Assembly: GCA_035368605.1 (NCBI GenBank)
Contig: DAOSLF010000003.1
Span: forward strand, 889 to 64,888
Direction: 5' to 3'
From: Candidatus Omnitrophota bacterium
GTDB taxonomy: Bacteria; Omnitrophota; Omnitrophia; Omnitrophales; Aquincolibacteriaceae
DNA: 64,000 nt
The position numbers were made by a program, and so were the translations under genes. Positions within the stretch are counted from its first letter, which is position 1; each line of letters starts with the position of its first letter. Shown in pieces: positions 15,982 to 46,002 of this stretch. The notes beneath the pieces are model-generated. The model worked only from the letters and a program-made list of their open reading frames with translations, was not told where the DNA came from and ran no database searches.

Positions 15982-17640
15982 TTATACCGCCGGCGGGGTT
16001 CCGCCCTGCGTCAGATGGGCGCGGCGGGGATTCGCCTTGCCGTACTCCATGAAGATCGCCTCGATCTCGTCATAATCCAGTTCGTTCTTCTGAAGGAGCT
16101 CATGGGCGAAACGCTCGAAGATGTCCTTTTCCTTGCGGAGGAGCGTATCCACCTCGGCCATGCAGTCCTTCAGGATCTTGTCGACGTCCTGGTTGAGCCG
16201 GGTCTTCATCTCTTCGGAGAGGAGCTGCGGGGCGACCGTGTAGTCTCCCACGAGACCCGACGGCCCCATCCCGTATTTCCAGACCATCGCGTTGGCATAA
16301 TTCGTCGCCTGATAGAAATCACTCCCGGGCCCTCCGCCGACACCGGTCGTGGTCGTTCCGAACTTGATTTTCTCCGCGACATAACTCGCGACGCAGACCT
16401 TGATCTCGGCCAGCATCGACTCGCGGTCGTTCAGGTGCCATTCCTCGATCGGCGTGGGATGCACGACACCGAGGGACATCTTCCGCGGGATAATCGAGGC
16501 CTTGAACACGTCGTCGCGCGGATGCAAAAGGTACGTGACGATCAAATGGCCCGTCTCGTGATACGCCGTCATCTCGCGTTCCTTGACGTTTATGGTCAGC
16601 TTCTGCTTCACGCCGAGCTCGATACGCTCGATCGCTTCGGAGATATCCTTCAGCGTCACGGAATCGCGTTTATTGCGGGTCGCGATCAGGGCCGATTCCT
16701 TGACGATGTTCTCAATGTCGGCCGGCGACTTGTCCACCGCCTTGCGCGCGAGACGCTTGCAGTCAACCGAGGCCTCGTGTTTGACCTTGCCCAGATAGAA
16801 CTTGAAGAGCGCCTCGCGGCCCTCGAGATTCGGTTTCTTGATATAGACCTTCCGGTCGAAACGTCCGGGACGGAGCAGCGCGGGATCGAGTACGTCCTCG
16901 GCCGCGTTCGTGGCCCCGATCACGACGATGTTCTCGGTCTTTTCCCCGAGACCATCCATCGCGACGAGTAGCTGGTTTTGGGTGGTGTTCCCTTCCCCGC
17001 TCCCGAACTGGCTGAAGGTGCGGCGGTGCCCCATCGCGTCAAGCTCATCAATAAACACGATGCAGCCGCCGAACCCGTAGGCCATGCGGGCGGCTTTCTT
17101 GAAGAGTTGGCGAACGCGGCTTGCGCCGACGCCGACGAAAATCTCGTTGAATTCGCTCGCGGCCATCGAAAGAAACGGCAGCCCCGCTTCCGTCGCGATA
17201 GCCTTCGCGAGATATGTTTTGCCGCACCCGGGAGGCCCCATCATCAGGATGCCGCGAAGAATCTTGCCGCCGATCTTCTTGAGGCGCGCATGGTCCTTGA
17301 TAAGCTGAACGACCTCCCAGCACTCCTCTTTGGCCTCGTCGATCCCGATCACGTCCGAAAACTTCACGTTCACGTCCTTGGCCGCGATATTCTTCTTTTT
17401 CTCGAGGTTCCCGAGGTTGCCGCGGAACAGCACCATATAAATATAGGCGAAGACCACCGCATTGATGACCATGATGATCATCTGGAGCGGCAACTGCGCC
17501 AGCGTGATATTGCGGTAGTAGCTTTCAAGCGACGCCATCCCCCAGATCGAGAGGAGGATCAGGATGAGGGAGGCGGCCACGATCGCGATCTTGATCCAGT
17601 GATCCATCCAAAAAAGCTTCCAGCGACGGTATGATTTCAT
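15982..17640 (-). CDS. ftsH: FtsH-like membrane-anchored AAA+ zinc metalloprotease
   Basis: Walker A GPPGCGKT, an AAA+ core, and the HETGH (HExxH) zinc motif. Two N-terminal TM helices are separated by only ~25 residues, whereas canonical FtsH has a ~70-aa periplasmic domain. Start set at the ATG at 17640 ([11 protein letters not shown]), which has an AAAGGAG SD. The ORF-track start at 17649 is TTG. Confidence 0.85.
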
Positions 17641-17699
17641 GTCAGACAATTCTCCTTTTCATTCTTGGCCTTCAAACTTGGGAAAGCGGCCTGGGAAGG

Positions 17700-17745
17700 C
17701 GGATAGTTGGGGTATTATATCCGTAAGTATTTCCGTTTTATAGAG
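17700..17745 (-). promoter_or_regulatory. possible promoter of ftsH-like operon (perfect TATAAT -10, no clear -35)
   Basis: The minus strand reads ...cggaaatacttacggaTATAATacccc... (TATAAT at 17714-17719) about 70 nt upstream of the ATG. I could not find a -35 match. No sigma32 consensus or CIRCE was seen. Confidence 0.3.
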
Positions 17746-17801
17746 GTATTTTGCCCTTTGGCCCCTGTCTTAACCCGAAACTCCGGGAGGAAAGGACAGT
17801 C

Positions 17802-18311
17802 TCACCACCAGTAGTCTTCCGAGGGAGCGGCATTCGTCGCCGCGGTTTCCGGGGAGATCCCCGCAGAGACTCCGCCTGCATCGGTCATCTCGGCTGCGGC
17901 ATCGAATCCGGGGAGAACTTCCGTTCCAGCGGCTGTCTCCTGTTCCCAATAGCCTTCCGCAGGCTGCTCGGGGGAAACCGGCTCTTCCGGCGCGGCAAGG
18001 GCATCCGCGGGAACCGCGGGTTCATCCCACCAGTTAAGTCCGGCCGTTTCCCCGGGCATGGCTTCCCTGGCCGCTGGTTTTTCGGCCTCGGGAGCGAACG
18101 GCGGCGCCGTCAGGAAGGTATCTTTGGGATTGTATTTAACACTATAAAGAAGAGCTCCTTTTTTTCCGTCTTTTTCCTCTTCCATCTTCTGTTTATAGAG
18201 AATGCCGTCCGTTTGCGTGTCCCGGATCGGATCCTCGCTCCTCCGGATCGCGGCAAGATTCGGCACGGCAAGCACGATCACCAAGGTTAAAAACAGACAT
18301 TTTCTGCTCAT
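17802..18311 (-). CDS. hypothetical secreted acidic low-complexity protein
   Basis: MSRKCLFLTLVIVLAVPNLAA is a signal peptide. The rest is an acidic Pro/Ala/Glu-rich sequence ending in DYWW. The start could instead be the upstream in-frame codon at 18389, which would overlap the uvrA stop. Confidence 0.5.
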   Translation of the reverse strand: MSRKCLFLTLVIVLAVPNLAAIRRSEDPIRDTQTDGILYKQKMEEEKDGKKGALLYSVKYNPKDTFLTAPPFAPEAEKPAAREAMPGETAGLNWWDEPAVPADALAAPEEPVSPEQPAEGYWEQETAAGTEVLPGFDAAAEMTDAGGVSAGISPETAATNAAPSEDYWW

Positions 18312-18381
18312 GGATGCACCACGTAAAGAGTATCTGAAAAAACCGGTCCTGGCAAATCGCGCGGCGTCCGGAATACGGAGC

Positions 18382-21183
18382 TTAAACATTTATACCCTGC
18401 CCTGTGTTGTATTTCTTGAGGCACCGCCCCGTATAAGACCGCTCGCACGCGAGAAGACCCGGGACATCCCCTGCGTAGAGGACCTCGCCACCCCTGTCGC
18501 CCCCCTCGGGTCCGAGATCGATCACATGGTCCGCGAGACTGATCAGTCCCATATGGTGTTCGATCACAAAGAGCGAATGCCCGCGCGCGAGGAGCTCGTC
18601 AAAAGCCTTCAGCAAATGATGGATATCCCGCTCATGAAGACCGGTGGTCGGTTCGTCGAGGAGATAGAGGGATGGTTCCGGTCCCAATTCGGTAAGCTCC
18701 GACGCGAGCTTCAGGCGTTGCGCCTCCCCTCCCGACAACGTGAGCGTCGGCTGTCCGAGCCGGAGATAGCCGAGGCCGATCCTGCGGAGGATATCCAGTT
18801 TCTCGATGAGGCCCTTGCGATCCGCGAAGAAGACGGCCGCTTCATCCACGGTCATATTGAGGACCTGATCGATGTTCTTTCCCTGATATTCGATCTCGAG
18901 GATCTCGCCCTTGAAACGTTTCCCGCGGCAGGCTTCACAGGGGACAAAGACATCCGCGAGAAAATGCATCTCCACCTTCACGGCACCATCCCCCTTGCAG
19001 GCCGGACAGCGGCCTTTCTCGGAATTGAAGGAAAAGTGACCGGCATCGAATCCCGCGCGCCGGGCCGCCTGGGTCGCGGCAAAGAGTTTGCGGATCTCTT
19101 CGAACGCCTTCGTATAGGTCGCTGGATTGGACCGGGGAGAGCGGCCGATCGGTGACTGGTCGATCACGATCATCTTCGCGATGTGCTCGAATCCCGTGAC
19201 ACGGCCCGCTTCGCCAAGTTCTTCGCGGGAAACAGGTTCGCCGCGGGATTTCAGATAATGATGATAGAGAACATCATAGAGCAGCGTGCTTTTCCCGGAA
19301 CCTGAAACGCCGGTCAGGACCGTCAGCCGTCCGAGCGGGACCGTCACACTGATATTTTTCAGGTTATGCGCCCGCGCGTTTATGATCGTGATCGCCGCTG
19401 TTTTATTCCGGGCCGCGCGGCCGGATTCCGGAACGCGGAACGCCCGTGTCAGTTTTTCCCGTCCCGAAAGATAGCGGGCCGTGTGGGAGTCCTTCACGCC
19501 AGGGAGTCCCCGGACAGGTCCCTGATAAATGAGCCGTCCTCCTCCGGCGCCGCCGTCCGGACCGAGGTCGATCACTTCGTCGGCGGCTTCAATCATCGTC
19601 CGGTCGTGTTCGACCACAACAACCGTATTCCCGAGGTCGCGCAGTTTTTTGAGGAGATTGATCAGCATTTCGTTGTCGCGCTCGTGCAACCCGACGCTCG
19701 GCTCGTCCAGCACATACAGCGTGTCGACAAGCGCCGAACCGAGCGAGCTCGCGAGATGGATCCGCTCCACTTCCCCGCCCGAAAGGGTGCGGGACATCCG
19801 GTCAAGCGTGAGGTAGCCGAGGCCGACCTCTTTCAGAAAGCCGACACGCGCAAGAAGTTCCTCGTGCACGGGGCCGGTCTTCTCCCTTTCCGCAGGCCGG
19901 AATTCGATTCCGCGAAGGAATTCGAGCAGCCGGTCGACCGGCATCGCCTGGATTTCGGCGATCGTCTTGCCGCCGACCCGGTAATTCATCGCCTCCGGTT
20001 TCAGACGGGCGGTCCCGCAGGCCGAACACGGAATGTAGCCGCGGTAGCGGTTCAGGAAAATCCGAACGTGCATCTTGTAGATCTTCTTCGCGAGGTAATC
20101 GAAGAAATCCCGCACGCTGAAGTATTCGTCTCCTTCGCGTCCGTTAAAAATCCATTCCTGGTGCTCTTTTTTGAGTTTCGCCCAGGGCTTTTTGACAGGA
20201 ATGCGTTTCCTCGAACAGAAATCGAGCAGTTGCCCCTGCTCCCAGCGGGTGCTCGCCTTCGTCCACGGCTCGATCGCGCCGCCGCTGATCGAACGCGAAG
20301 GATCGGGAATGACGAGGTCCCGGTCGATCGTGATGACGCGTCCGAACCCCTGGCAGACGGGGCAGGCGCCGAGCGGGCTGTTGAACGAGAAAAGGTTGGA
20401 CGTGGGTTCGGGGAACGTCCGGTCGCAGGAAATACAGCGGAGCTTCTCGGAAAAGGTCAATCGCTCGCCATCGGTCCATGCCTGGACCTCGCCCTGCCCG
20501 TAACGGAACCCGGTCTCGAGCGAATCGATCAGACGTTCCCGTTCATTCGCGGCGGGGATCAGTTCGTCAATCCCCACGAAAAGTTCCTCAGGCGCCGGCT
20601 TGGCCGCGACGACCGCACTTCCCTCGCGCCATTCGCCTTTATGAAAGAACGGGCCAAACCCTTGCCGCTCGAGTTCGGCGATATTCTCCTTCAGGTATTT
20701 TTTCCCGGATCTCCCGACCGCGATCCGGATCACGATCCGGAACTTTCGGCCCGAAGCGTCCGCGATCAGCCGGTCCGCCGTGCCCGCCGGGTCGTGGCTC
20801 TCAACCTCTTTCCCGCAATCCGGACAAGTCAGGCGCCCCGCCCGGGCGAAAAGGACCCGGAGATAGTCGTTGATCTCGGTCTGGGTGCCAACCGTCGAGC
20901 GGGCATTTGTGACGATATTCTTGGCCTGGATCGCGATCGCGGGAGGGATTCCGGTGGCGCTTTCGAGATCCGGCTTCGGCATCCGCTCGAGGAATTGGCG
21001 GGCATACGCGGAAACGGACTCGAGATAGCGGCGCTGTCCCTCCGCATACAGGGTGTCAAAGGCAAGGGATGATTTTCCCGATCCGGAGACACCCGTTACG
21101 ACATAGAACTTCCGGTGCGGAAGCCTGAGGTGGAGGTTCTTGAGATTGTGGGTCCTGACCCCGCGGAGCTCGATGGAATCCAA
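18382..21183 (-). CDS. uvrA: excinuclease ABC subunit A
   Basis: Two ABC ATPase modules (GVSGSGKSSL..., second GVSGSGKSTL...) and zinc-finger Cys clusters give full-length UvrA similarity. The conserved N-terminus IELRGVRTHNLKN begins near 21170. No in-frame ATG precedes it, so the proposed start is the TTG at ~21183. The open frame continues to 21354 across the upstream lipoprotein gene. Confidence 0.9.
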   Translation of the reverse strand: MDSIELRGVRTHNLKNLHLRLPHRKFYVVTGVSGSGKSSLAFDTLYAEGQRRYLESVSAYARQFLERMPKPDLESATGIPPAIAIQAKNIVTNARSTVGTQTEINDYLRVLFARAGRLTCPDCGKEVESHDPAGTADRLIADASGRKFRIVIRIAVGRSGKKYLKENIAELERQGFGPFFHKGEWREGSAVVAAKPAPEELFVGIDELIPAANERERLIDSLETGFRYGQGEVQAWTDGERLTFSEKLRCISCDRTFPEPTSNLFSFNSPLGACPVCQGFGRVITIDRDLVIPDPSRSISGGAIEPWTKASTRWEQGQLLDFCSRKRIPVKKPWAKLKKEHQEWIFNGREGDEYFSVRDFFDYLAKKIYKMHVRIFLNRYRGYIPCSACGTARLKPEAMNYRVGGKTIAEIQAMPVDRLLEFLRGIEFRPAEREKTGPVHEELLARVGFLKEVGLGYLTLDRMSRTLSGGEVERIHLASSLGSALVDTLYVLDEPSVGLHERDNEMLINLLKKLRDLGNTVVVVEHDRTMIEAADEVIDLGPDGGAGGGRLIYQGPVRGLPGVKDSHTARYLSGREKLTRAFRVPESGRAARNKTAAITIINARAHNLKNISVTVPLGRLTVLTGVSGSGKSTLLYDVLYHHYLKSRGEPVSREELGEAGRVTGFEHIAKMIVIDQSPIGRSPRSNPATYTKAFEEIRKLFAATQAARRAGFDAGHFSFNSEKGRCPACKGDGAVKVEMHFLADVFVPCEACRGKRFKGEILEIEYQGKNIDQVLNMTVDEAAVFFADRKGLIEKLDILRRIGLGYLRLGQPTLTLSGGEAQRLKLASELTELGPEPSLYLLDEPTTGLHERDIHHLLKAFDELLARGHSLFVIEHHMGLISLADHVIDLGPEGGDRGGEVLYAGDVPGLLACERSYTGRCLKKYNTGQGINV

Positions 21184-21199
21184 GGAAATCCCGGACGAA

Positions 21200-21590
21200 C
21201 TACCTGGCGTCGCTCGGGAGCCTGTCGCCGATCCAGTCGATGATCTCGCCGCTGCTGAGCCGCTGCCGGGAGTCGGGCGCGAGAGACACCGAGGTCTGTT
21301 CCCGGTCGACCCGTTTGACGAGGATCGAGATAACGCGTTTGTCAGCGTCGTCAAAGCGGGTGTACTCGGTGTTGCGGACCGTGATGAGGCCTTTTTCCTT
21401 GTCGGTGGACTCGAGTTCCCATCCGGGCTTCGCGTTCAGAGCCATCAGGGTGTTCATGTAGGTCAGGTCATAAGGCTTGTTATAAAGAAGGACCTCGTCG
21501 TGGACCGGGAGGACCTTGTGGACCGACGAACAGCCGGGAAGATAGAGGCACGCGAGAACGGCAACACACATCAGGATTTTTTTCATCATG
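21200..21590 (-). CDS. hypothetical lipoprotein (130 aa)
   Basis: MMKKILMCVAVLACLYLPGCSS has a lipobox and follows a GGAGAT SD. Hypothetical. Confidence 0.7.
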
Positions 21591-21655
21591 GATATCTCCT
21601 TAACCCCGCAGGGTCTCGATTTGAAGCCGGCTTTTTTGTCCGTCACCGGACAGGG

Positions 21656-24600
21656 CTAGAACTTCCCCGTCATCCGCACGAACGGACCGCTGTTATGATA
21701 ATTGTTCGCGTCCCGGAGGTCATCCGTAAAATCGGTAAAATTATAACCGATCCCGATCCGCACGTAATCATAGATTTCACGATCAACCTCGAAAAGCATC
21801 CCGTGCCGTATCGTATCGAGCGCGGAGGATTGCCACAAGAGCCGATATTCGGCCGCGATATCCCATTTCCGGGTCACATGGAAATTAATGCGGCTGACAG
21901 ACAAGAAATTACCGGTATCCGTCTCATCAAGCGTGTTACGGGCCAAAGTGAACAAGTCGCGATCCTGGGTGATCAGCGTTGCCCGTTTCCACGCCAGTTT
22001 CTGTGCGAGACCGAAGAACCGATTCACGTCATAGATCGCGTCCATTGAGATAACATGCGCGATCTCATGGAACATGTTTTCGTTGTAATAAGAATTCACG
22101 TACTGAAAATCATTTCCGATGTCTCTCAAATAGCTATACTTAAAGAGAAAATTCAGGTGGTCAAGACCAATAGGGCGATAGGCAAAAGCCACGGTAAAAT
22201 CCGCAAAATTCCCAAGATTTGTTTGCTTGCTTTCATCCACGAGATCGAAAAGATAGGTGGCGCCATAATCAAATTTGGTCAGAAAAGTCAGCTCGCGATG
22301 AATTTGATATTGAAATGAATTGCGCAAGACCAGCTGATTACCCTTGGGATACGCACCATTGCTTCTCAGTTCCGCATAAGTCCGCGCACGGAGTTTTCTG
22401 CCGTCCGCGTAGGCCAGATAGCCTCCATAAACGTTGGAGCTGTTATTCTGCGCCAGGCTATTTTCAACCAATGTCAGCAGATTCCGGGCCATCGAACTGT
22501 CCAAGTGCCGCCGCTCATACTTCGCGCCGTAATCCCAGTGGTCGTTCAGCGCGCCCTCATAGCCGAGAATATCCGCAAAACCATCCACGCCCTGGTAGGA
22601 GGAGTACTCGCGTTCCGAATAAATTCGCGATTTCTCGGTAAGCGAAAAAGAGCTCCCGATCGCGGTTGAGAGTGTCCTCGAACCAATGCCGCGGTCGATC
22701 GAGCGGAGGTTCGCATAGCTTCGCGCGCCGTTGCCGTGGTTCCTTTCGAAGCCGAAGTAGGTCGAATCCCCCAGCGGACCGAACATCTGCTCGATATAAC
22801 CGAAGACATCCTTGATCAGCTCGCAACGCACACCGCCGCCAAACTGGTAATTGTCCGCCGAGTGAAGAGTCGTTTGCGCTTTCACATACGGCAAGAGGCG
22901 GTCATTGATATGGTAGCCGATCTTGGTCGCGATGCCGTGCTCATAGGGGATTTCGGAATAAAGCGAGGGCGTCAGGTTGGCAGCGTCCTGGACTTGGTCG
23001 ATGTTGCTGCGCTGGTATTCGGCCTGGGCAAGGTATTTGCCGTTATCGTAGGCAAGCTGGGCCGTGTGGGTCTGCAGGTCTTCGTAAGGGGCCATGATAT
23101 TATGCTCGGCAAGAGGCATCAACTGGCCGATCACCTCGCTTGAATCGAAACGGTAGCGGGCCGAGAAATTATCGGTGAACTTGTAACGGCTCGCGAGACC
23201 GTATTTCTTGAAACCTTCCTGGCTCGTCATGTGGCCGTTCGAAAAACTCGGCTCCACGCCCTGGACGTAACCGCTCACTTCGAGGTTCCTCACGGGTTCC
23301 GACTGCGCGCGGATCAGGTAGGCGTCCTCGCGCGGCCGCGTGTTGTCCCCGCGCAGGTTCCCTTCCGTCCCGAAGCTGAGCCCTCCGTCGAAAGAGACCG
23401 AGGAATCCATCTGCTTGTTCGCGGTGGTCGCGTACTCCGCGGTGATCTTGGTGTTGCGGCCGAACTTCATCATCAGGTCAACGCCGCGCATGTCGTAATC
23501 GTTGCCGCCGGTCCGTTTTTCCTCGACCGCCGTTGCACCGAGCCTCACGTGATCGCCGGCCCACACGTAACCGCGCAGACCGCGGTTGCCGATCTCCGGA
23601 AGGTCCGACGAGGAAGGTTCATACTCGTAGTCCACGATCAGGTAAACGGGATTGCCGTCCATGATATCGGCCGAAACGAGCGAATCCGTCGCGGCGACGG
23701 ACGAGAGCGGGCGGGAAAGAAGGATGCGGCCTTCGGCGTAGCTGATCTCGTAATCCGTCCCTTCCGTCATGTCGTGGCTCGTCAGCACCATCCCCGTAAT
23801 CTTGTCGCGGATCTCGACGCGAATCTTTTCGCTACCTTCGATCAGGTTCCGGTTGCGCGTGTAGAAAAGGGAGCCGCCCGTCGCGTAGAACTCGTTATGG
23901 TCGGCCCGTTTGTCCGAATCAGCCCAGAAAAACCGGAGACCGCGCTTCGGGTCCCCGTAGACCGTGCTCGCGACCGAATCGAAACTCCCCTTGAGGCCGG
24001 AGAGCGTCCGGTTATAGGTGGCCAGTTCGGTATCCGTGAATTCCGTCTTGAAGCTCCCCCATTTCAGATAAGACTTGTCCATCTCGACCAGCACATAGAG
24101 CCGCTGGGCCGTGTCCTGCGCCTCGTAGTCGCGTGCCGAGTAGTCGCCGTAGACCGGATAGTATTCGTCAGGGTCGAGGTTCGTGAACAGCGCGGAACGG
24201 CGATCCGAGGTGTCGTAGTGAGCCTTGACGAGGAACTTCCCCTTGAGTTTCGATTTCAGGAAAAAGGCCGCGCGGCCGTCCTCGGTGAACCCGTCGCGGT
24301 AGGCGTCGGAATCCGCGGCTTCCATCGCCCCGTTCGCGAAATTGATGCCGAGCTGCTCCTCGCCAAGGGCGACCATGAAGAACGTGCTGTCCTTGACCTT
24401 GATCTTTTCCTGGTAGGTCGTGCTTTCCCCTTTCGGATCCGCGGCCATGATGTTGAACTCGTGCTCGCCGGGCTCGACGAAGAACTCCTTCTGGAACATG
24501 CCGGTCTCGGGGTCCACTGTCACGGGGAGGTCGTTGATCATGACCTGGTACTCGGGTCTTGTCTTGCCCTGGACCCGGACCGTCGGTTTCGCGATGAGGG

Positions 24601-26419
24601 GGATGCTGCGCTTGCCGTCCTTAAAGAGGTTGAAATCCCCGACCGCCGGAAGCTCGGGCTGGTAGTTCTTCTGGGCCCTGGGATCGAGCTTGTTGTAGAC
24701 CTCGAAGAACTTGAGGGTTGTCCAATCCTCGTGGTGCTTCGCATCGCGAACCTTGAGCTGGTACGAATAGACGCCGGGCTTGATCATGAAACCATTCTCG
24801 GCCTTCCCGTCCCACGTCACCTCCGCGGGCGGCGCACCGATGCCGTAACCGGTCCAGACGGGCACGCCCATTTCGTCGCGGACCTCGATGGCCCATTTCT
24901 TGACGAACCTGGCGTAATTGGTGTCGAGCCTGAAGAGCGCGTCCTTTTCGAGGACCCCGACGCCGAGCTTCAGGAGCTCCGGTTCCATCATAATGTCAAG
25001 GTCCGGCCGGGAGATATCAACCCCCTGCGTGACCATGACCATCAGGTCCTTGCGGAACGCCTCGGGAATGCCGGAGGGCGGGAGCAGGACGGCAAAACTC
25101 GCCTTGCCCATGAGACCGGGCGTGATCTTCACGAGATAGGTCTCTTCGGTGATGAATTTCGTTCCTTCGGGAAGCGTATGCCCGTCGATCTTGACGAGAT
25201 GGCGGCCCGGCGCGACGCCGGGGATGTGATAGCGGCCGTACTCATCGGTGACAACCTTGATGCCCTCTTCCGTATAAAGCGTCACCCACGGCACGCCCTC
25301 TTCACCGCATTGCTGGACGCCGTCCTGGTTAAGATCGTTAAAGACCTTGCCGATGATGGTCCCCTCCTCAAAGATCGGATCGCCCACGACCGTGAACTGC
25401 ACGTGCGCCGTTTCGGAAAGCGTGCCGCCGCTCCCCTCCACCGTAACCTCCAGCGAATATGTCTTCCCGAGCTGGACACCGCTCGTCACGAGCGTGGCAA
25501 ACGTCACGTCATACGAGGCGCCGGGTCCGATCGTCCCGAGCGGGATGAGCAGCGAGCCGTCCTGCCCGGCGACCGACTTCCCGTTCACGCGGATCGAATG
25601 CTCGGCGTAGTCGAACCCGTTCGGAATCTTGACCCGCATGTTCGAGTTCGTGAAGGTGTTGCCGGAACTATTCCGGAAATGCGCATTAATCCCGATCGCG
25701 TCTCCTTTCTTGATGTGACGCTTGGACGCCGCAACCGTAAGCTTTGCCGGATTCACTTCCGCGTTCAGATCGTCATACAGAATATTTCCATATCGGGGAA
25801 CTGCACCGGCGCTGACACCGTTGGCATCCAAAACAAAAACAACTTTGGCCGCATTTTCAGGAACGATCGCAGTTATCGAAAAGAGCGTCCAGACGCCCAC
25901 CGGAGCGGTGGCAGCAGTGATTTTTCCCGTTTCAACGGGAGTTCCGATTTTCACCCCGGAGGCGTCCTCGAACTCGATCTTCATTCTCCCCCCCGTGTCC
26001 GCTGCCATGATGTCCGATTGGGCATAGCCCGAGAAAGTAATGTAATCTCCCGGCTTCACGTTGCTGTAGGTCTGGAACGTGAAGGTGCTTTCATAAAAAG
26101 CCGGCGCGTCAAAATAGGCCTGCAAATAAAGCGCGTAGGAGCCGTTCCTCGGGGCGAGAAAACCGGGCGGCAACCCGGCGGGATTAACCACTCCATCCCA
26201 GCGCCCCATTTTGGCGGTCGTGTTCAAAGGCCTGGTGTTATCTGCCCAGTTATTCTGCGTCCCGTCCCCAAGCGGCTGTTCAAAACTCGGGTTGCCGAGC
26301 ACGTTGGCGAAGGCGGAAGGCGTAAAAGCGAAAAACAGCCACAAACCACAAAACCATACGGCAATACGAAGCCGGGGCGCTTTCTTGGCGGGCATGTGGT
26401 GTGTGGCGCGTGACATCAT
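21656..26419 (-). CDS. giant (1587 aa) outer-membrane-associated surface protein: CBM4/9-like N-terminal domain, DUF11-like and SdrD-B-like repeats, large C-terminal beta-barrel-like region
   Basis: A signal peptide (…FAFTPSAFA) is followed by NVLGNPSFEQ..., the hallmark opening of CBM4_9-type modules. KVFNDLNQDGVQQCGEEGVPWVTLYTEEGIKVVTDEYGRYHI matches the SdrD B-type (CnaB-like) repeat. The last ~900 aa are rich in Y/G/N/D with alternating hydrophobics and end ...VRMTGKF (terminal Phe, an OMP beta-barrel signature). The ATG immediately follows the stop of the upstream OMP gene. Confidence 0.6.
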   Translation of the reverse strand: MMSRATHHMPAKKAPRLRIAVWFCGLWLFFAFTPSAFANVLGNPSFEQPLGDGTQNNWADNTRPLNTTAKMGRWDGVVNPAGLPPGFLAPRNGSYALYLQAYFDAPAFYESTFTFQTYSNVKPGDYITFSGYAQSDIMAADTGGRMKIEFEDASGVKIGTPVETGKITAATAPVGVWTLFSITAIVPENAAKVVFVLDANGVSAGAVPRYGNILYDDLNAEVNPAKLTVAASKRHIKKGDAIGINAHFRNSSGNTFTNSNMRVKIPNGFDYAEHSIRVNGKSVAGQDGSLLIPLGTIGPGASYDVTFATLVTSGVQLGKTYSLEVTVEGSGGTLSETAHVQFTVVGDPIFEEGTIIGKVFNDLNQDGVQQCGEEGVPWVTLYTEEGIKVVTDEYGRYHIPGVAPGRHLVKIDGHTLPEGTKFITEETYLVKITPGLMGKASFAVLLPPSGIPEAFRKDLMVMVTQGVDISRPDLDIMMEPELLKLGVGVLEKDALFRLDTNYARFVKKWAIEVRDEMGVPVWTGYGIGAPPAEVTWDGKAENGFMIKPGVYSYQLKVRDAKHHEDWTTLKFFEVYNKLDPRAQKNYQPELPAVGDFNLFKDGKRSIPLIAKPTVRVQGKTRPEYQVMINDLPVTVDPETGMFQKEFFVEPGEHEFNIMAADPKGESTTYQEKIKVKDSTFFMVALGEEQLGINFANGAMEAADSDAYRDGFTEDGRAAFFLKSKLKGKFLVKAHYDTSDRRSALFTNLDPDEYYPVYGDYSARDYEAQDTAQRLYVLVEMDKSYLKWGSFKTEFTDTELATYNRTLSGLKGSFDSVASTVYGDPKRGLRFFWADSDKRADHNEFYATGGSLFYTRNRNLIEGSEKIRVEIRDKITGMVLTSHDMTEGTDYEISYAEGRILLSRPLSSVAATDSLVSADIMDGNPVYLIVDYEYEPSSSDLPEIGNRGLRGYVWAGDHVRLGATAVEEKRTGGNDYDMRGVDLMMKFGRNTKITAEYATTANKQMDSSVSFDGGLSFGTEGNLRGDNTRPREDAYLIRAQSEPVRNLEVSGYVQGVEPSFSNGHMTSQEGFKKYGLASRYKFTDNFSARYRFDSSEVIGQLMPLAEHNIMAPYEDLQTHTAQLAYDNGKYLAQAEYQRSNIDQVQDAANLTPSLYSEIPYEHGIATKIGYHINDRLLPYVKAQTTLHSADNYQFGGGVRCELIKDVFGYIEQMFGPLGDSTYFGFERNHGNGARSYANLRSIDRGIGSRTLSTAIGSSFSLTEKSRIYSEREYSSYQGVDGFADILGYEGALNDHWDYGAKYERRHLDSSMARNLLTLVENSLAQNNSSNVYGGYLAYADGRKLRARTYAELRSNGAYPKGNQLVLRNSFQYQIHRELTFLTKFDYGATYLFDLVDESKQTNLGNFADFTVAFAYRPIGLDHLNFLFKYSYLRDIGNDFQYVNSYYNENMFHEIAHVISMDAIYDVNRFFGLAQKLAWKRATLITQDRDLFTLARNTLDETDTGNFLSVSRINFHVTRKWDIAAEYRLLWQSSALDTIRHGMLFEVDREIYDYVRIGIGYNFTDFTDDLRDANNYHNSGPFVRMTGKF

Positions 26420-27994
26420 TTAAAACCGCCTGTGCGAGAACTTCATTCCAAAACGGAGGTCGTAACGGATGGCATCGGGAGCTTCCCCGTCCTGCTTGGA
26501 GTGCTGAACTTTACCGATCGCAAGCCATTCCCCGAAGATCGCTATTTTGGAAAGCCACTCGTCTTCTTTCCAGCGATAGGACCTGAACGGCATCCAGCGG
26601 ATTCCGGGAGCAAGGTAATACTGGTTTTGATAATGATAAGAGTATTCGTCATTGCTTGTATGCTCAAAACGGAGGTAAGGCATCAGGACCAATTCATCGT
26701 TGATCGGGTTATGCGGGAGCGGGATAGCGGGCAGCTTGATCCCCATGATCACGGAGGAGTTCAGAATCCAGGCGTTGAAATGACGCATCTCGCTAAAATC
26801 GGTTTTATGCCACCGGTAGTCGCCGAAATATTCGCCCCACACATATTGACGGAGATAATCGGCAAAACGTTCGGGCTTTCCTTCGTCCAGAGGCGGCAAC
26901 TCCGTGCCCCATTCATAGAAAATCTGAACCCCGGCAACCAGATCGTAGTCTTTCGCGTTCTGGATCTCGTCCTTGATGTTGTAACGGTTGCCGTATTTGA
27001 TATAGAACTTGTAATTCCGGACCCATTCAAGGAGCGGGATGTCCCAGCCGAACGGGCGGAAGTTGTAAAGCCAGGGATTGCGCGCGAAGGGACGCCATTC
27101 GAATCCGGCGAAGATATCGAAGTGGCTCTTGTAATCCGCCCCGACCGCTTCGATCGTTGTCGTCTCCTCGAAGAAGGGATCGATGGTGCTGAGCGGGGCG
27201 CGGATGCCTTTAAGGACGATGCGGTTCGTCCAGTAGCCGACCTGGCTGTTGAAGTTCCTGTTCTCGAGGTTGGTCATGCGGTAGGTTGTTTCGCCGAAGG
27301 ACTGCCACAGCACCGGTTCGCCGGCCGGCTCGCCCTGGAAGGGGCCCCACATCTTTTCCCCGAGATCGAGCTGGTCCGCGAATTTAAGAACGAGCTCTTC
27401 TTCCTTCTGGTACTGGGCCTTCGTCTTCACGGGCTCCGGTTTTTCAGGCGCGACAAACACCGGCACGGCCTGGACGCTCTTTGCGAAATTCCCGCCCTGG
27501 GATTCGATCCTCGATTTGACGCGGGTCACTTCCGCGGTCGCCTGGGCGGCCGTCGGGAAGGCCTTGTCCCCGACCCAGAAAAGATCGGACGTTCCCCCGC
27601 CCGCGAGCGGGAGGGGAAGTTTGCGGATCTCTACGCCTTCGAAATTCGCGACCTGCAGGTTCTTCTTGATGTATTCGTCGATCGCCTTGATGTCTTTCAG
27701 GCCGGGAAGGAAACGCGATCGGAGCGCGCCGCCCCCGAAATCTGTCACGATGGAATATTCGGCGTTCTGCGGCCGCGAGCGGGTCTTGATCACGGGAAAG
27801 CCGCGGACCCCGGAGACCTTCAGGTCGAGTTTCTGGCCGGACGGGGCGTAGAAATGCTCGGCGTAGAGATTTCTCCCGGGAGTTTCGGCCGGAGCGGCTT
27901 CAGGCTCGGTCGTCAGGATGCCCGCAAACGCAGGGGAGGAACAGAAAAGAACCGCGCTTGCCAAAACAGGGGGTATGAAATTTTTAAGTATCAT
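26420..27994 (-). CDS. outer-membrane beta-barrel protein (524 aa), hypothetical
   Basis: Signal peptide (…SSPAFAG), aromatic-rich alternating pattern, C-terminal ...KFSHRRF. The stop codon abuts the start of the giant surface-protein gene (TAA ATG ATG). Confidence 0.6.
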   Translation of the reverse strand: MILKNFIPPVLASAVLFCSSPAFAGILTTEPEAAPAETPGRNLYAEHFYAPSGQKLDLKVSGVRGFPVIKTRSRPQNAEYSIVTDFGGGALRSRFLPGLKDIKAIDEYIKKNLQVANFEGVEIRKLPLPLAGGGTSDLFWVGDKAFPTAAQATAEVTRVKSRIESQGGNFAKSVQAVPVFVAPEKPEPVKTKAQYQKEEELVLKFADQLDLGEKMWGPFQGEPAGEPVLWQSFGETTYRMTNLENRNFNSQVGYWTNRIVLKGIRAPLSTIDPFFEETTTIEAVGADYKSHFDIFAGFEWRPFARNPWLYNFRPFGWDIPLLEWVRNYKFYIKYGNRYNIKDEIQNAKDYDLVAGVQIFYEWGTELPPLDEGKPERFADYLRQYVWGEYFGDYRWHKTDFSEMRHFNAWILNSSVIMGIKLPAIPLPHNPINDELVLMPYLRFEHTSNDEYSYHYQNQYYLAPGIRWMPFRSYRWKEDEWLSKIAIFGEWLAIGKVQHSKQDGEAPDAIRYDLRFGMKFSHRRF

Positions 27995-28059
27995 TAAAAA
28001 TTTTTAGTTTTTGGCTTTCGGCTTTTGCAAAACTTTAATGAACAAGGTCCCGCCAAAAC

Positions 28060-28863
28060 TTACATCATTCCGAGAACATGGCCCATATGATAGAGACCCG
28101 TCTTCTTTTTCGCAAGGAATTTTGCCGCCAGAAGCGCGCCCCGGGCCAAAGCTTCGCGGGAAGTAGCCTTGTGGACCAGTTCGACACGCTCCCCATCCCC
28201 GAAAAACGACACCGTATGTTCACCGACCACGTCGCCGCCCCGCATGGCGAATACGCCGATCTTCCCTTGCTGCCGGGCGCCGGTGTCCCCTTCGCGGCCA
28301 CAGACCAGATCCTTCGCCGGGTCCCTGCCTCTTGCATCGGCCAGAATTTCGGCCAGTTTAAGAGCGGTGCCGCTCGGCGCGTCCTTTTTCATCCGGTGGT
28401 GGATTTCCATGATCTCGAGGTCGTAGCTTTCGTCGAGGACCTTGCCCGCGAACGCCGCGAGGCGGAACAGGAGGTTCACCCCCACGCTCATGTTGGGCGA
28501 CTGGACGATCGGTATCTTCTTTGAAGCGAGGGCGATTTTTTTCATCATCCCGGGAGGAATCGCGGTGGTCCCGATCACATACTTCTTCTTCGCCGCGACA
28601 CAGGCCGCAAGGTTATCCGGCAGCGCCGAAAAATGACTGAAATCGATCAGGACATCCGACGTCTTCATGACCGCGACCGGACTGGAATCAATCCGGACAT
28701 TAAGGAGATCGCCGCCGATCAAGGAACCGATATCCATGTCCAGTGTCGCGTGGCCGCGCTGTTCGATGCCGCCCGTGATCCTGAACGCCCTGTCCTTCGC
28801 AGCGAGCTTCAGGATGATCTTTCCCATCCTGCCCGCCGCGCCCGCCACCGCCAATCTGATCAT
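28060..28863 (-). CDS. dapB: 4-hydroxy-tetrahydrodipicolinate reductase
   Basis: MIRLAVAGAAGRMGK... gives full-length DapB similarity. Start set at the internal ATG with a strong AAGGAGAAGGG SD. The ORF-track upstream extension has no support. Confidence 0.9.
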   Translation of the reverse strand: MIRLAVAGAAGRMGKIILKLAAKDRAFRITGGIEQRGHATLDMDIGSLIGGDLLNVRIDSSPVAVMKTSDVLIDFSHFSALPDNLAACVAAKKKYVIGTTAIPPGMMKKIALASKKIPIVQSPNMSVGVNLLFRLAAFAGKVLDESYDLEIMEIHHRMKKDAPSGTALKLAEILADARGRDPAKDLVCGREGDTGARQQGKIGVFAMRGGDVVGEHTVSFFGDGERVELVHKATSREALARGALLAAKFLAKKKTGLYHMGHVLGMM

Positions 28864-28877
28864 ACCCTTCTCCTTAT

Positions 28878-28901
28878 ACCACTCCAACCTACGAGGTTGG
28901 A
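28878..28901. repeat. element A copy 1: 24-nt repeat containing perfect 8-3-8 palindrome TCCAACCT-ACG-AGGTTGGA
   Basis: accactccaacctacgaggttgga is identical to 34999-35022. It lies in the dapA-dapB intercistronic region, directly 5' of the dapB SD on the mRNA. Confidence 0.8.
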
Positions 28902-28907
28902 TTTTGG

Positions 28908-29792
28908 TTAAACGATTTTCAACGTTTTGAGAACTGCCCGCAGTTTCTTCACGTTCTCCGGTTTCATCTCGCAGAGCGGAAGCCGCAGCTCCGGCTTGAT
29001 CATCCCCATCATCCCGAGCGCCGTCTTGGCCGGAATGGGATTCGTCTCGATGAAGACCGCTTTGGAAAGAGGATAGTGTTTCTTGTGGAGTTCCCGCGCC
29101 TTCGCCATATTGCCGTCGAGCGCCGCCCACACCATGTCATGAACGAGCTTCGGCGCGACGTTCGCCGACACCGAGATCACACCCACCGCCCCGGCCGCGA
29201 TCAGCGGGAAGGTCAGGCTGTCCTCGCCCGAAATGACGGGAAGGTCGCAGAGCTGCATGATCTGGTCCGCCTGGTCCATGCTCCCGCTCGCTTCCTTGAT
29301 CGCGACAATATTGTCGATCTTCGAAAGCCGCGCCACGGTCTCAGGCGCGATCGACACTCCGGTACGCCCCGGCACGTTATAAAGGACGATCGGGATGTCA
29401 ACCCGGCCCGCGAGGTATTCGTAGTGGCGGTAGAGACCTTCCTGCGTCGGCTTGTTATAGTACGGCGTCACGATCAGCGCCGCGTCCGCGCCGGTTCGCT
29501 TCGCATGCTGGACAAGGCCGAACGCCTCCGCGGTATTGTTCGACCCGCACCCCGCAATCACGGGGACGCGCCCGTTCACGTAATCGACGACGAACGACAT
29601 TGTGTCACGGTGTTCCTCATGCGACATCGTTGCGGACTCCCCCGTCGTGCCGCAGGGAATGATCACGTCCGTCCCGGCCTTCAGGTGGAAATCGATGAGC
29701 CCCGCCATCGCCTTGCGATCGACCTTACCGCTCCTGAACGGCGTGACAAGCGCAACCATGGAACCCGCGAACCTTATTTTCTTTTTAGCCAT
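28908..29792 (-). CDS. dapA: 4-hydroxy-tetrahydrodipicolinate synthase
   Basis: MAKKKIRFAGSMVALVTPF... has DapA/NAL-family TIM-barrel similarity throughout. Confidence 0.9.
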   Translation of the reverse strand: MAKKKIRFAGSMVALVTPFRSGKVDRKAMAGLIDFHLKAGTDVIIPCGTTGESATMSHEEHRDTMSFVVDYVNGRVPVIAGCGSNNTAEAFGLVQHAKRTGADAALIVTPYYNKPTQEGLYRHYEYLAGRVDIPIVLYNVPGRTGVSIAPETVARLSKIDNIVAIKEASGSMDQADQIMQLCDLPVISGEDSLTFPLIAAGAVGVISVSANVAPKLVHDMVWAALDGNMAKARELHKKHYPLSKAVFIETNPIPAKTALGMMGMIKPELRLPLCEMKPENVKKLRAVLKTLKIV

Positions 29793-29816
29793 GTTCTCTT
29801 CCTTCTCCCTGCCTGA

Positions 29817-30629
29817 TTAAAGAAAATATTCGCCCCGATAGACAACCTGCGCCTTCCCCTGAAGGAAGGCCTTTGTGACGACGGTACCTTTGCGCTCCAG
29901 ATCGATCACAAGCTTCTCGCCGCCCCTCGTGTGGACCGTGACCGGTGTCGCGACATACCCCTTGAGCACGCTCACGACGGAAGAAGCCGTCGATCCCGTC
30001 CCGCACGCGAGCGTCTCGTTCTCGACACCGCGCTCGTACGTCCGGACCATGATCTCGCGCTTGCTCTTCACCTCGACAAAATTCACGTTCGTTCCCGCCG
30101 GCTTGAACTTCGCATGCGTGCGGACTGCCCGTCCGACGGTGGCAACATCGATCTTCCCGAGCCCCTCCACAAAGATCACGATATGCGGGACACCGGTGTC
30201 GACGAACGCGTAGTGGAGCCGGTGGCCGGAGACCTCAAGCATGCCGCTCATCTCAAAAATCCTCGGCTTCACAAGCTGGACCTTCACGTCACCGCTTTGT
30301 CCGACTGCGGCCTCAATGAGTCCGGAGCCCGACTCAAAGATCATCTTTGGGGGCAGTTTGATAACTTCGCGCGCATACAGGGCAATACAACGGAAACCGT
30401 TCCCGCAGGCCGCGGCCTCGGAACCGTCCAGGTTGATGATCCGCATCCTAAAATCCGCCTTCGCGGACTTTTCATAAAGCAGGACGCCGTCCGCGCCCAC
30501 TCCCTGATGAAGCTCGCAGACCCGCTTCGAGAAAGCGGCGGCGTTCTTTACGACCCCCCGTCGGTTGTCCACAACCACGAAATCGTTCCCCGAGGCGACC
30601 ATTTTATAGAAGGGTATTGTTTTTCTCAT
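29817..30629 (-). CDS. dapF: diaminopimelate epimerase
   Basis: ...SGNDFVVVD..., and catalytic Cys motifs (ACGNG, CGTG). Confidence 0.9.
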   Translation of the reverse strand: MRKTIPFYKMVASGNDFVVVDNRRGVVKNAAAFSKRVCELHQGVGADGVLLYEKSAKADFRMRIINLDGSEAAACGNGFRCIALYAREVIKLPPKMIFESGSGLIEAAVGQSGDVKVQLVKPRIFEMSGMLEVSGHRLHYAFVDTGVPHIVIFVEGLGKIDVATVGRAVRTHAKFKPAGTNVNFVEVKSKREIMVRTYERGVENETLACGTGSTASSVVSVLKGYVATPVTVHTRGGEKLVIDLERKGTVVTKAFLQGKAQVVYRGEYFL

Positions 30630-44976: not shown

Positions 44977-46002
44977 TCAGATGAGCCCCGCACCCTCGGG
45001 GAAACCGAACCGGATGTTCATGTTCTGGACCGCCTGACCGGAGGCGCCCTTTAAAAGATTGTCGATGGCCGTAATGATGACAAGCCGCCCCGTGCGGGCG
45101 TCGAGCGAAACGCCGATGTCGCAGAAATTCGTGTTCCGGACGTCCTTCAGGCTCGGGAACTGTCCCGCAGGCTTGACCCGCACGAACGGGTCCTTGCCAT
45201 ACGCGGTCACGAGCGCCCGCCGCACTTCATCCTCCGTCACCGTCTTTTTGGCGGGCTCGACATAGATCGTCGCGAGAATACCGCGGTACACGGGAAGAAG
45301 ATGCGGGATGAACGTGATCGCAACCTCGCGGCCGGCCGCCAACGAAAGATTCTGCTCGATCTCGGGAATATGCTGGTGTTTATTGACCTTGTACGCGTTG
45401 TAGTTCCCGTCCACTTCGCAGAACTGTGTCGAGGTGACAAGCTTCTTCCCCGCGCCGCTCACGCCGGACGCGGCATTGATGATGACGGGATCATGCTTGA
45501 TAAGCTTCTTCTCCAAGAGCGGAATGAGCGCGAGCGAAGGGCCTGTCGGATAACACCCGGGATTGGAAATAAGCTCGGCCTTCCTGATCTTCTTCCGGTT
45601 CACTTCGCAAAGTCCGTAAACGGCCTGCCGGAGCCGCGCCGGGAACGCATGGTCGATTCCGTACCACTTCGGATAAAGCGTCGCGTCTTTCAGCCGGAAA
45701 TCCGCGGAGAGATCAATCACAACCTTTCCCGCCTGCAGAAACAGGTCCCCGGTCGTCATCGCCTCCGTGTGGGGCAGGCAGAGAAAAACCATGTCGGCCT
45801 TCTTCCTGAGATCTTCAAAATCATACGGGGTGATCTGGAGTTGCACGCCCCTGGGAACGGACGGAAGGACCTCAGAAAGCGGGATCGGCTTTTCCTGCCG
45901 AGTGGTGAGATGAGTGATCCGAACATCCGGATGGGAAAGCAACAACCTCGTGAGTTCAGCGCCTGTGTAACCCGTAGCGCCCAAGACAGCGCAGTTCAAC
46001 AT
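44977..46002 (-). CDS. argC: N-acetyl-gamma-glutamyl-phosphate reductase
   Basis: MLNCAVLGATGYTGAELTRLL... N-terminal NAD(P)-binding segment, with the catalytic Cys region (NPGCYPT). Confidence 0.9.
   Translation of the reverse strand: MLNCAVLGATGYTGAELTRLLLSHPDVRITHLTTRQEKPIPLSEVLPSVPRGVQLQITPYDFEDLRKKADMVFLCLPHTEAMTTGDLFLQAGKVVIDLSADFRLKDATLYPKWYGIDHAFPARLRQAVYGLCEVNRKKIRKAELISNPGCYPTGPSLALIPLLEKKLIKHDPVIINAASGVSGAGKKLVTSTQFCEVDGNYNAYKVNKHQHIPEIEQNLSLAAGREVAITFIPHLLPVYRGILATIYVEPAKKTVTEDEVRRALVTAYGKDPFVRVKPAGQFPSLKDVRNTNFCDIGVSLDARTGRLVIITAIDNLLKGASGQAVQNMNIRFGFPEGAGLI

Follow-up and report, generated by a model that had tools for sequence, protein, structure and literature searches.

Architecture of the locus

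The window, a stretch of 64,000 nucleotides from a Candidatus Omnitrophota bacterium (GCA_035368605.1, contig DAOSLF010000003.1), carries three neighbouring minus-strand genes for envelope proteins, here called geneA, geneB and geneC. The initial annotation had described a two-gene module. Its two open reading frames, their coordinates and the TAA followed by ATGATG at their junction were all confirmed, with translations ending in SHRRF (geneA, 26420-27994, 524 aa) and MTGKF (geneB, 21656-26419, 1587 aa), but the module is in fact a three-gene cluster, with a conserved lipoprotein gene downstream of geneB.

26420..27994, minus strand: geneA, predicted secreted outer-membrane protein of 524 aa with signal peptide, alpha/beta domain, linker helix and a barrel of ~12 strands with terminal Phe
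26414..26422, minus strand: junction of the geneA stop and geneB start, TAA-ATG-ATG, read from the sequence
21656..26419, minus strand: geneB, predicted secreted protein of 1587 aa in which a beta-sandwich array at the N-terminus precedes a giant C-terminal barrel
21200..21589, minus strand: geneC, lipoprotein of 129 aa (signal peptide and lipobox, MMKKILMCVAVLACLYLPG followed by Cys)

Public gene callers place the start of geneB at Met9, 24 nt downstream, and that of geneA 10 codons later, so that the coupling distance between the two genes is 0 or 24 nt depending on which geneB start is used. Both translations begin with Sec-type signal peptides ending in AFA. The geneC reading frame lies 66 nt past the geneB stop and is preceded by a ribosome-binding site (AAGGAG, 21596-21601); its signal peptide ends, as in bacterial lipoproteins, in a lipobox L-x-[GAS]-C, which is LPGC in the window. 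Homologs of geneC were found in 37 loci, 34 of them matching the lipobox and the other three carrying variant boxes, and in most of these loci the gap between geneB and geneC is 9-120 nt. No Pfam or PDB match was obtained for geneC, which had been overlooked in the initial annotation.

Conservation of the cluster

Both geneA and geneB are real genes, not chance open reading frames. More than 230 homologs were found for each, with identities of 50-100% among the matches listed for geneA and 40-100% among the 120 listed for geneB. The pair is conserved in related genomes, as had been suggested: A-B-C adjacency holds in 55/55 loci where the contig reaches past geneA. Of 51 related loci, 35 have the first in-frame geneB ATG at -4 to +34 nt relative to the stop of geneA. 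The gene order dapA-dapB-A-B-C-uvrA-ftsH recurs in 62 Omnitrophota genomes as far as the contigs reach; among loci that extend past the cluster, all but a few have the dapA/dapB and uvrA/ftsH flanks. Since these housekeeping genes are equally syntenic, adjacency alone is no proof of a functional module, and we take it as weak evidence for a complex. A promoter and terminator scan gave no operon-defining signal above chance. The cluster is bordered by the dap genes on one side and by uvrA and ftsH on the other, and contains no energising or inner-membrane component. It adjoins no cargo gene in the Omnitrophota loci, and its neighbourhood lacks SusD-like and glycoside hydrolase genes.

The geneB gene behaves as a core gene, being single-copy and syntenic, while geneA and geneC share the same phyletic range and appear, from these searches, to be restricted to Omnitrophota. 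Profile HMMs of geneA and geneC found nothing in five loci that carry barrel homologs from outside the ortholog group. An initial suggestion that the module may be lineage-specific holds for geneA and geneC, but not for the giant barrel of geneB, which belongs to a multi-phylum family.

The small barrel protein, geneA

Two separate outer-membrane barrels had been proposed at the locus, and AlphaFold2 predicts both at a usable level of confidence. In geneA, however, only residues 228-524 are modelled as barrel, and a separate alpha/beta domain precedes it.

27461..27820, minus strand: geneA N-terminal alpha/beta domain, aa ~59-178, order bbbb-a-bbbb-a, not POTRA-like (DSSP of the AF2 model, pLDDT ~85-93)
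26423..27313, minus strand: geneA C-terminal beta-barrel of ~12 strands, aa 228-524 (AlphaFold2 prediction)

The barrel is unusually conserved, with a mean pairwise identity of 61%. There is no Pfam or NCBIfam match to geneA, scanning its domains singly against Pfam at E<=10 gave nothing informative and left the alpha/beta domain without a family, and sequence and profile searches of the PDB returned no relevant match for the barrel. A comparison of alignments by hhalign showed no relationship between the geneA and geneB barrels (probability 0.1). The possibility that geneA is an OMPLA-like enzyme was ruled out, because its alignment contains no invariant histidine.

The N-terminal array of geneB

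The Ig-repeat array proposed for the N-terminal part of the larger protein was borne out by Pfam searches of the window protein and 31 orthologs, which found Ig-type domains.

25745..26305, minus strand: CBM4/9/22-like jelly-roll domain, aa 39-225, 36% identity among orthologs (profile against PDB; Pfam in one ortholog)
25382..25744, minus strand: DUF11/CLIPPER-like Ig domain, aa 226-346, variable, 32% identity (Pfam, ortholog alignment)
25079..25381, minus strand: SdrD-B-like domain, aa 347-447, with loop motif D-x-N-x-N/D-G (Pfam, PDB)
24695..24949, minus strand: FlgD_ig-like Ig domain, aa 491-575 (Pfam, 18/31 orthologs)
24392..24583, minus strand: Glucodextran_B-like Ig domain, aa 613-676, abutting barrel strand 1 (AF2 strands at pLDDT ~85; Pfam in 18/31 orthologs)

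The individual domain names fared unequally. SdrD_B is supported, scoring 29.7 bits at residues 358-422, exactly the gathering cut-off of PF17210 (29.7), with matches in 31/31 orthologs and to SdrD itself in the PDB (E 3.4e-6). The DUF11 match of the window protein is a weak one (E 0.028), and 12/31 orthologs also match this family. The CBM4/9 likeness of the first domain is weakly supported: its profile matched 1gui, the CBM4-2 of T. maritima laminarinase, at E 0.0066 and the xylanase Y chain 2w5f at E 0.21, and one of the 31 orthologs has a CBM_4_9 match (E 1.5e-4), but Pfam gave no match to this domain in the window protein, even with residues 39-225 scanned alone at E<=10. Matches to CarboxypepD_reg are weak, and those to CHU_C reflect weak Ig-fold similarity alone. 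Neither the window protein nor the 31 orthologs gave a match to OmpA, SLH or any other domain that binds the wall.

Conservation varies widely along the protein. The SdrD-B-like domain is the most conserved part (70% identity among orthologs), followed by a 77-aa insert in the barrel (64%) and the barrel's own N-terminal portion (60%), whereas the two distal domains are the most variable (32-36%).

The predicted giant barrel

The C-terminal region of geneB, some 900 aa ending in Phe, had been read as a very large beta-barrel, and AlphaFold2 predicts that residues 677-1587 (911 aa) form one such barrel, with a mean pLDDT of 75 and a pTM of 0.71.

21659..24391, minus strand: giant beta-barrel, aa 677-1587, with C-terminal Phe; DSSP counts 42 strand segments, of which ~38 are confidently modelled (AlphaFold2 model)
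24137..24178, minus strand: family-wide invariant loop motif LDPDxYYPxYGDxS, aa 748-761, in a segment of low pLDDT (<50) (no variation in each of three alignments, A2 to A4)
23654..23884, minus strand: 77-aa small beta domain between barrel strands 8 and 9, aa 846-922, periplasmic by parity (AF2 model, loop parity)

Long loops and short turns alternate throughout the 42 strands, and indels occur in 9 of 21 long loops versus none of 20 short turns, a loop parity that is consistent with one continuous meander in the model. Coevolution analysis by mean-field DCA, run on 283 sequences of the barrel (effective number 237), gave enrichment for neighbouring hairpins (0.079 vs 0.044) and no closure signal between strands 1 and 42 (0.044); pLDDT is low at the seam, in strands S1-S3 and S42. 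Strand parity would place the N-terminal end of the barrel at the periplasmic face, strand 1 starts ~5 residues past the last Ig domain, and no lumen-spanning linker is evident.

Sequence searches of Pfam, NCBIfam and the PDB found no match spanning either barrel of the locus. The 77-aa insert and N-terminal barrel part, scanned singly against Pfam at E<=10, gave nothing informative, and the geneB barrel and a barrel-only profile found nothing relevant in the PDB. Structure searches returned partial, generic matches with TM-scores of at most 0.25, the best Foldseek hits being Deinococcus SlpA chains (TM 0.23-0.25), with SprA at TM 0.16 and an alignment to SusC covering 254 residues only. Both points on which the initial annotation depended, a predicted C-terminal barrel in geneB and a gene pair lying outside any described family with known domain boundaries, stood.

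The giant-barrel family beyond Omnitrophota

Clustered at 50% identity, the family to which the barrel belongs comprises 2717 protein clusters from multiple phyla. The barrel is always C-terminal, in proteins of 900-7612 aa, and 219 of 282 members end in F, Y or W. N-terminal extensions range from nothing, as in barrel-only members such as P0328 (906 aa), to >6700 aa, and include right-handed beta-helix, PKD, Chlam_PMP, DUF11, SdrD_B and Big modules, with DUF11-SdrD_B-barrel as the core common to the family. Three relatives have OmpA peptidoglycan-binding domains in the extension, N-terminal to the barrel in both that were mapped. Outside Omnitrophota, barrel genes adjoin those for giant cadherin/Big_9, PKD, RHS or fibre-like proteins. 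The 611-aa gene upstream of an Omnitrophota barrel paralog encodes a Gly/Thr/Ser-rich fibre-like protein and is not geneA.

No NCBIfam model covers the barrel in 15 diverse barrel proteins scanned, and the family goes unmentioned in the papers on Omnitrophota that were consulted. Outer-membrane barrels of 38 and 40 strands have, however, been predicted computationally by Solan et al. (PNAS 2021, families 002/003; PMC8346858), and the giant barrel is probably a member of their "38/40-strand" superfamily, judged by predicted strand count (38 confident and 42 in total for geneB). That superfamily, too, is predicted to be single-chain and larger than the 36-strand SprA, is known from computational prediction only and has no known function; the paper contains no account of a DUF11-SdrD_B core, of a three-gene cluster in Omnitrophota or of partner proteins. 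GeneA, geneB and geneC themselves belong to no described family and have no known function, although giant barrels of 38-40 strands as such have been predicted before.

Possible roles of the A-B-C proteins

The impression that the pair follows no classical layout was upheld, since POTRA, TPS, autotransporter, intimin and usher signatures were not found. For type Vb two-partner secretion, geneA would need POTRA domains and a 16-strand Omp85 barrel, but is predicted to have ~12 strands and an N-terminal domain unlike POTRA, and Pfam finds no TPS (haemagglutination activity) domain in geneB. In intimin and invasin (type Ve) the barrel comes first and the Ig passenger lies C-terminal to it, the opposite order to geneB. 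LptD has 26 strands, compared to ~40 predicted in geneB; Pfam and NCBIfam give no OstA/LptD signature, and geneC matches no known family, hence nothing ties it to LptE.

Our preferred reading, to which we give a probability of about 0.4, is that A, B and C make up a self-anchored surface-display complex of the outer membrane, vertically inherited in Omnitrophota. GeneB would leave the cytoplasm through Sec, and its C-terminal 911 residues would enter the outer membrane as one very wide barrel of ~40 strands, the lumen being filled or closed by the SdrD-B, FlgD-Ig-like and Glucodextran-B-like Ig domains, the 77-aa insert and the invariant DPDxYYPxYGD loop, while the variable distal modules, a CBM4/22-like lectin tip and the DUF11-like Ig domain, would protrude as a glycan-binding adhesin. 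GeneA, with its alpha/beta domain probably periplasmic, and geneC may act as co-expressed accessory subunits that assemble, seal or gate the barrel. What the analysis shows is the genes with their conservation and close spacing, the signal peptides and lipobox, the predicted folds and the lack of signatures of known families; the three-protein complex, the stalk through the lumen, the exposed tip and the glycan binding are inferred. Display would resemble that of type Va autotransporters with a giant barrel in place of the 12-strand one: geneB shares with them a signal peptide, passenger-like N-terminal modules and a C-terminal barrel with an aromatic end, and its relatives share passenger modules such as beta-helix and Chlam_PMP. 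It differs in having ~40 predicted strands over 911 aa, no evident helical linker, no Pfam Autotransporter match, and a separate barrel protein and lipoprotein alongside. A bolder proposal, which we consider doubtful, is that residues 677-1587 are the largest single-chain transmembrane beta-barrel seen so far (~40-42 strands) and form, with a dedicated 12-strand partner and a lipoprotein, a hitherto unrecognised display or secretion machine, a 'giant-barrel autotransporter' whose module is reused across many phyla for anchoring or exporting passengers of up to ~6700 residues.

Surface display is favoured because the longest extensions in the family, with their passenger modules, hardly fit the periplasm, and variable distal domains above a conserved SdrD_B domain, insert and N-terminal barrel part fit an exposed tip on a buried stalk; the CBM4/22 resemblance lends it weak support. 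Yet 'surface protein' was an assumption of the initial annotation, and the predicted position of strand 1 at the periplasmic face, just after the last Ig domain, and the OmpA domains of three relatives argue against it. These same points suggest that geneB may instead be a periplasm-facing major outer-membrane protein whose array is a spacer or tether to the cell wall, in the manner of SlpA/OmpM or OmpA, a possible but rather unlikely reading. Its core-gene behaviour would suit that role, five to six beta-sandwich modules could plausibly cross a periplasm (a rough, uncomputed estimate), and SlpA and OmpM-type tethers likewise combine an N-terminal binding domain, a stalk and a large C-terminal barrel. 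SlpA, the best Foldseek match, is nonetheless very distant and has 30 strands, and no coiled coil is present; geneB and its orthologs also lack an SLH or other wall-binding domain. Wall-binding domains in known tethers are usually well conserved, whereas the putative tip of geneB is its least conserved part (36% identity), and passengers of thousands of residues (beta-helix, PKD, PMP) are implausible in a periplasm. By analogy with the type IX system, geneB could also be a wide-bore translocon that exports other large surface proteins, with geneA PorV-like and geneC a plug or accessory, though we think this improbable. SprA is a 36-strand barrel, to our knowledge the largest solved, that works with PorV and a plug/PPI (PDB 6h3i, 6h3j), and A-B-C has the like set, with a giant single-chain barrel next to a small one and a small lipoprotein; a lumen of such width must be capped or plugged. 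The barrel-only relatives, the giant neighbours of barrel genes in other phyla and the presence of SprA among the structural matches fit such a role, as does the exit route needed by the giant putative adhesins encoded by Omnitrophota (PMC10066038). Against it, Pfam and NCBIfam find no SprA, PorV or other secretion-system signature in geneA or geneB, the CHU_C matches are mere Ig-fold similarity, and the cluster contains no energising component and adjoins no cargo gene.

A further question is whether the three proteins act together at all. Independent envelope proteins could be neighbours merely through a frozen, phylum-wide gene order, as the flanking genes show and as might be expected from the scan for promoters and terminators and from the five loci where barrel homologs lie without geneA and geneC. 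We regard this as quite unlikely given the A-to-B spacing of 0-34 nt in most loci, the short B-to-C gaps, and the finding that each of the three is an envelope protein without a known family, A and C having the same phyletic range. Least probable of all is a SusC-like glycan-uptake channel, in which the CBM-like domain would catch polysaccharide for passage through the barrel; this domain and the weak CarboxypepD_reg matches point that way, but Pfam and NCBIfam give no Plug or TonB-dependent receptor signature, the SusC alignment is short, ~40 strands are predicted compared to the 22 typical of the class, and the neighbourhood has no SusD-like or glycoside hydrolase gene.

Omnitrophota are ultra-small bacteria thought to be host-dependent. 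As a conserved core envelope component of this phylum with two dedicated partners, geneB is a strong candidate for a role in surface building or cell attachment. The giant-barrel family as a whole comprises thousands of proteins without a Pfam or NCBIfam model or a solved relative. If the prediction is true, the geneB barrel exceeds the 36-strand SprA, and the folding and sealing of a ~40-strand barrel present a concrete problem for outer-membrane biogenesis, for which the locus supplies a defined three-protein set for structural work.

The gene trio and its conservation

Three adjacent genes on the minus strand make up a genuine envelope gene set that is conserved and so far uncharacterised:

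26420-27994 (-): geneA, a 524-aa ORF with stop codon TAA and a predicted C-terminal barrel of about 12 strands (aa 228-524)
21656-26419 (-): geneB, a 1587-aa ORF starting ATGATG immediately after the geneA TAA; a beta-sandwich array followed by a predicted giant barrel (aa 677-1587)
21200-21589 (-): geneC, encoding a small lipoprotein of 129 aa, with an AAGGAG site ahead and a start 66 nt past the geneB stop

The initial annotation had treated geneA and geneB as a two-gene module; its reading of their architecture was right, and both ORFs and the TAA/ATGATG junction stand, but the third gene was overlooked. Alternative public gene calls, from identical metagenome contigs, start geneB at Met9, 24 nt downstream, so that the spacing between the two genes is either 0 or 24 nt, and start geneA 10 codons further in. 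The geneA and geneB products both carry Sec-type signal peptides ending in AFA and both finish in Phe, while the geneC product opens with a lipoprotein signal, MMKKILMCVAVLACLYLPG|C. Housekeeping genes flank the trio on the same strand, namely dapB, dapA, dapF, lysA and a saccharopine-dehydrogenase-like gene upstream, and uvrA and ftsH downstream. Antisense ORFs of 1060 aa (23231-26413, +) and 521 aa (26432-27997, +) lie opposite geneB and geneA, respectively; as all homologs back the minus-strand genes, these are taken as shadow ORFs without coding evidence.

A genome scan returned 62 loci, whose record titles, where they name a taxon, always give Omnitrophota or Omnitrophica, the others reading ‘uncultured bacterium’. 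Conservation of the pair in related genomes, proposed as a check in the initial annotation, holds: geneA is followed by geneB in 55/55 loci with a contig extending beyond geneA, and the distance from the geneA stop to the first in-frame geneB ATG lies between -4 and +34 nt in 35 of 51. A geneC homolog is present in 37 loci, 34 of them with a matched lipobox, mostly 9-120 nt after geneB. The order dapA-dapB-A-B-C-uvrA-ftsH (window ~15982-30629) is retained across loci L001-L062 at 42-82% geneA protein identity to the window, with dapA/dapB on one side and uvrA/ftsH on the other missing from only a handful of loci with flanking sequence.

Mean pairwise identity among orthologs is lowest in distal geneB (CBM-like tip 36%, DUF11-like domain 32%) and higher in SdrD_B (70%), the N-terminal part of the barrel (60%) and a domain inserted within it (64%). 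The geneA barrel, at 61%, is unusually conserved for a membrane barrel. According to DSSP of its model (26423-27313, -), the longer, helix-containing loops share a side with the chain termini. Conventionally that side is periplasmic, and the arrangement would then be the opposite of the usual outer-membrane protein pattern.

Domain content and the predicted giant barrel

Pfam searches gave no match to geneA or to the last ~900 residues of geneB, and NCBIfam gave no meaningful match to either. Elsewhere in geneB, SdrD_B was matched at 358-422 with a score exactly equal to the cut-off, alongside weak matches to FlgD_ig, DUF11, CarboxypepD_reg and CHU_C; among its orthologs Pfam finds SdrD_B in 31/31, Glucodextran_B and FlgD_ig in 18/31 each, DUF11 in 12/31 and CBM_4_9 in 1/31. 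The CBM4/9-like start first suggested for geneB gains slight backing from that single ortholog and from a profile of the N-terminal domain, which in the PDB matches the Thermotoga maritima laminarinase CBM4-2 at E 0.0066 and, more weakly, a chain of xylanase Y (2w5f, E 0.21), but the window's own domain, scanned alone, matches nothing. PDB sequence and profile searches returned no relative of the geneA barrel, the geneB barrel or geneC.

A structure model of geneB residues 600-1587, built from 57 sequences (mean pLDDT 75.3, pTM 0.71), places an Ig domain at 613-676 before 42 strand segments reaching the C-terminus, with a small beta domain (846-922) between barrel strands 8 and 9. Around 38 strands are confident, since the first three and the last sit in low-pLDDT blocks. 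Foldseek ranks SlpA, LptD, FimD, MtrB and SprA highest, every TM being <=0.25, and the region is therefore taken as a predicted outer-membrane-type barrel without a close solved relative; by our own geometric estimate its lumen would measure roughly 6-7 nm. An independent check on a 283-sequence barrel alignment supports a regular meander: period-2 hydrophobicity exceeds the threshold of 1.2 in 40/42 strands, long loops (median 10 residues) alternate with short ones (median 3.5), and indels are confined to the former (9/21 long versus 0/20 short turns). Coevolution analysis was too weak to reveal barrel closure. Strand parity, counted from the C-terminus, has the first strand begin on the periplasmic face and assigns the inserted domain to the periplasmic side and the invariant LDPDxYYPxYGDxS loop to the outer side. 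This motif (24137-24178, -; geneB aa 748-761) is invariant throughout the barrel family although its segment has pLDDT below 50, and it may serve to bind a ligand, a metal or a partner.

A large unnamed barrel family

The centrepiece of the trio is a predicted barrel of ~40 strands belonging to a large unnamed family. An exhaustive search with geneB residues 678-1587, clustered at 50% identity, recovered 2717 clusters at E<=1e-3; tightening the limit to E<=1e-30 leaves 840. Proteins with this barrel range from 900 to 7612 aa and carry it C-terminally; among 282 full-barrel relatives its end is the exact protein C-terminus in 191, and 219 finish in F, Y or W. A DUF11-SdrD_B-barrel core with variable modules (beta-helix, PKD, Chlam_PMP, Big) ahead of it is common to many members, while others, e.g. 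P0328 (906 aa), consist of the barrel alone. Where the source is named, members belong to Omnitrophota, Planctomycetota, Wallbacteria, Chlamydiae and Sedimenticola, and their annotations go no further than hypothetical, DUF11 or SdrD-B-like protein. Three family members carry OmpA peptidoglycan-binding domains in the N-terminal extension, N-terminal to the barrel in both mapped cases.

Outer-membrane barrels are a known kind and giant ones have been predicted previously. The largest known barrel, according to a 2026 preprint, is the 36-strand SprA (10.64898/2026.03.07.710327), and a superfamily of single 38- and 40-strand barrels, without a function, was predicted by Solan et al. (2021) on the basis of contact maps (PMC8346858); it is probably the geneB family. 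Among the Omnitrophota papers covered, passages on envelopes and adhesins treat giant adhesin-like ORFs, with nothing on the trio.

Homologs of geneA and geneC were not found at five other barrel loci examined, where the neighbours are cadherin/Big_9, PKD, RHS or fibre-like genes. Outside Omnitrophota, giant-barrel homologs adjoin large cadherin/Big_9, PKD or RHS/YD-shell proteins (loci L066, 1-6986; L064, 6950-10242; L068, 1-5273), a tentative sign that the barrel is associated with repeat proteins that are secreted or on the cell surface.

Possible roles of the trio

The absence of a clean fit to autotransporter, intimin or two-partner layouts, noted at the outset, is borne out on the features tested, and usher, TonB-dependent/SusC-like transporter, LptD and SprA layouts fit no better. 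We favour, tentatively (probability about 0.4), a self-anchored surface-display complex, because passenger-like extensions of such length, and so typical of surface proteins, do not suit the periplasm, the variable domains are the distal ones, and the best-conserved parts could occupy or seal the barrel lumen. The chief evidence against surface display is topological: judging from strand parity and from the relatives with OmpA domains, the barrel's N-terminal end lies in the periplasm, and no lumen-spanning linker is visible in geneB.

That same topology favours a periplasmic tether or structural protein, a reading we consider rather unlikely overall, the length and character of the extensions counting against it. 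An SprA-like translocon, in which geneA and geneC would supply accessory subunits, is improbable; SprA is among the top Foldseek ranks, and its layout is among those that do not fit. Less probable again is that three unrelated neighbours have been kept adjacent by frozen synteny alone, the flanking housekeeping genes being retained along with them. A glycan importer, set beside the CBM-like tip and the poor fit to a SusC-like layout, is the most doubtful proposal.

Other features of the window

50775-54917 (-): 1380-aa ORF in which a stretch of about 296 aa is duplicated almost identically
46962-49445 (-): AsmA-family protein, 827 aa, a further envelope gene
55895-56911 (-): semialdehyde-dehydrogenase-family gene
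44977-46002 (-): second semialdehyde-dehydrogenase-family gene, adjoining an ArgJ gene (43678-44898)

The 1380-aa ORF has no Pfam match and contains a direct DNA repeat (51366-51665 and 52254-52553, 96% identical, 888 nt apart). Amino-acid biosynthesis genes are plentiful in the window, which has dap genes and lysA as well as the two semialdehyde-dehydrogenase-family genes; the position of the 44977-46002 gene suggests an arginine-pathway role, and it may therefore be ArgC-like.
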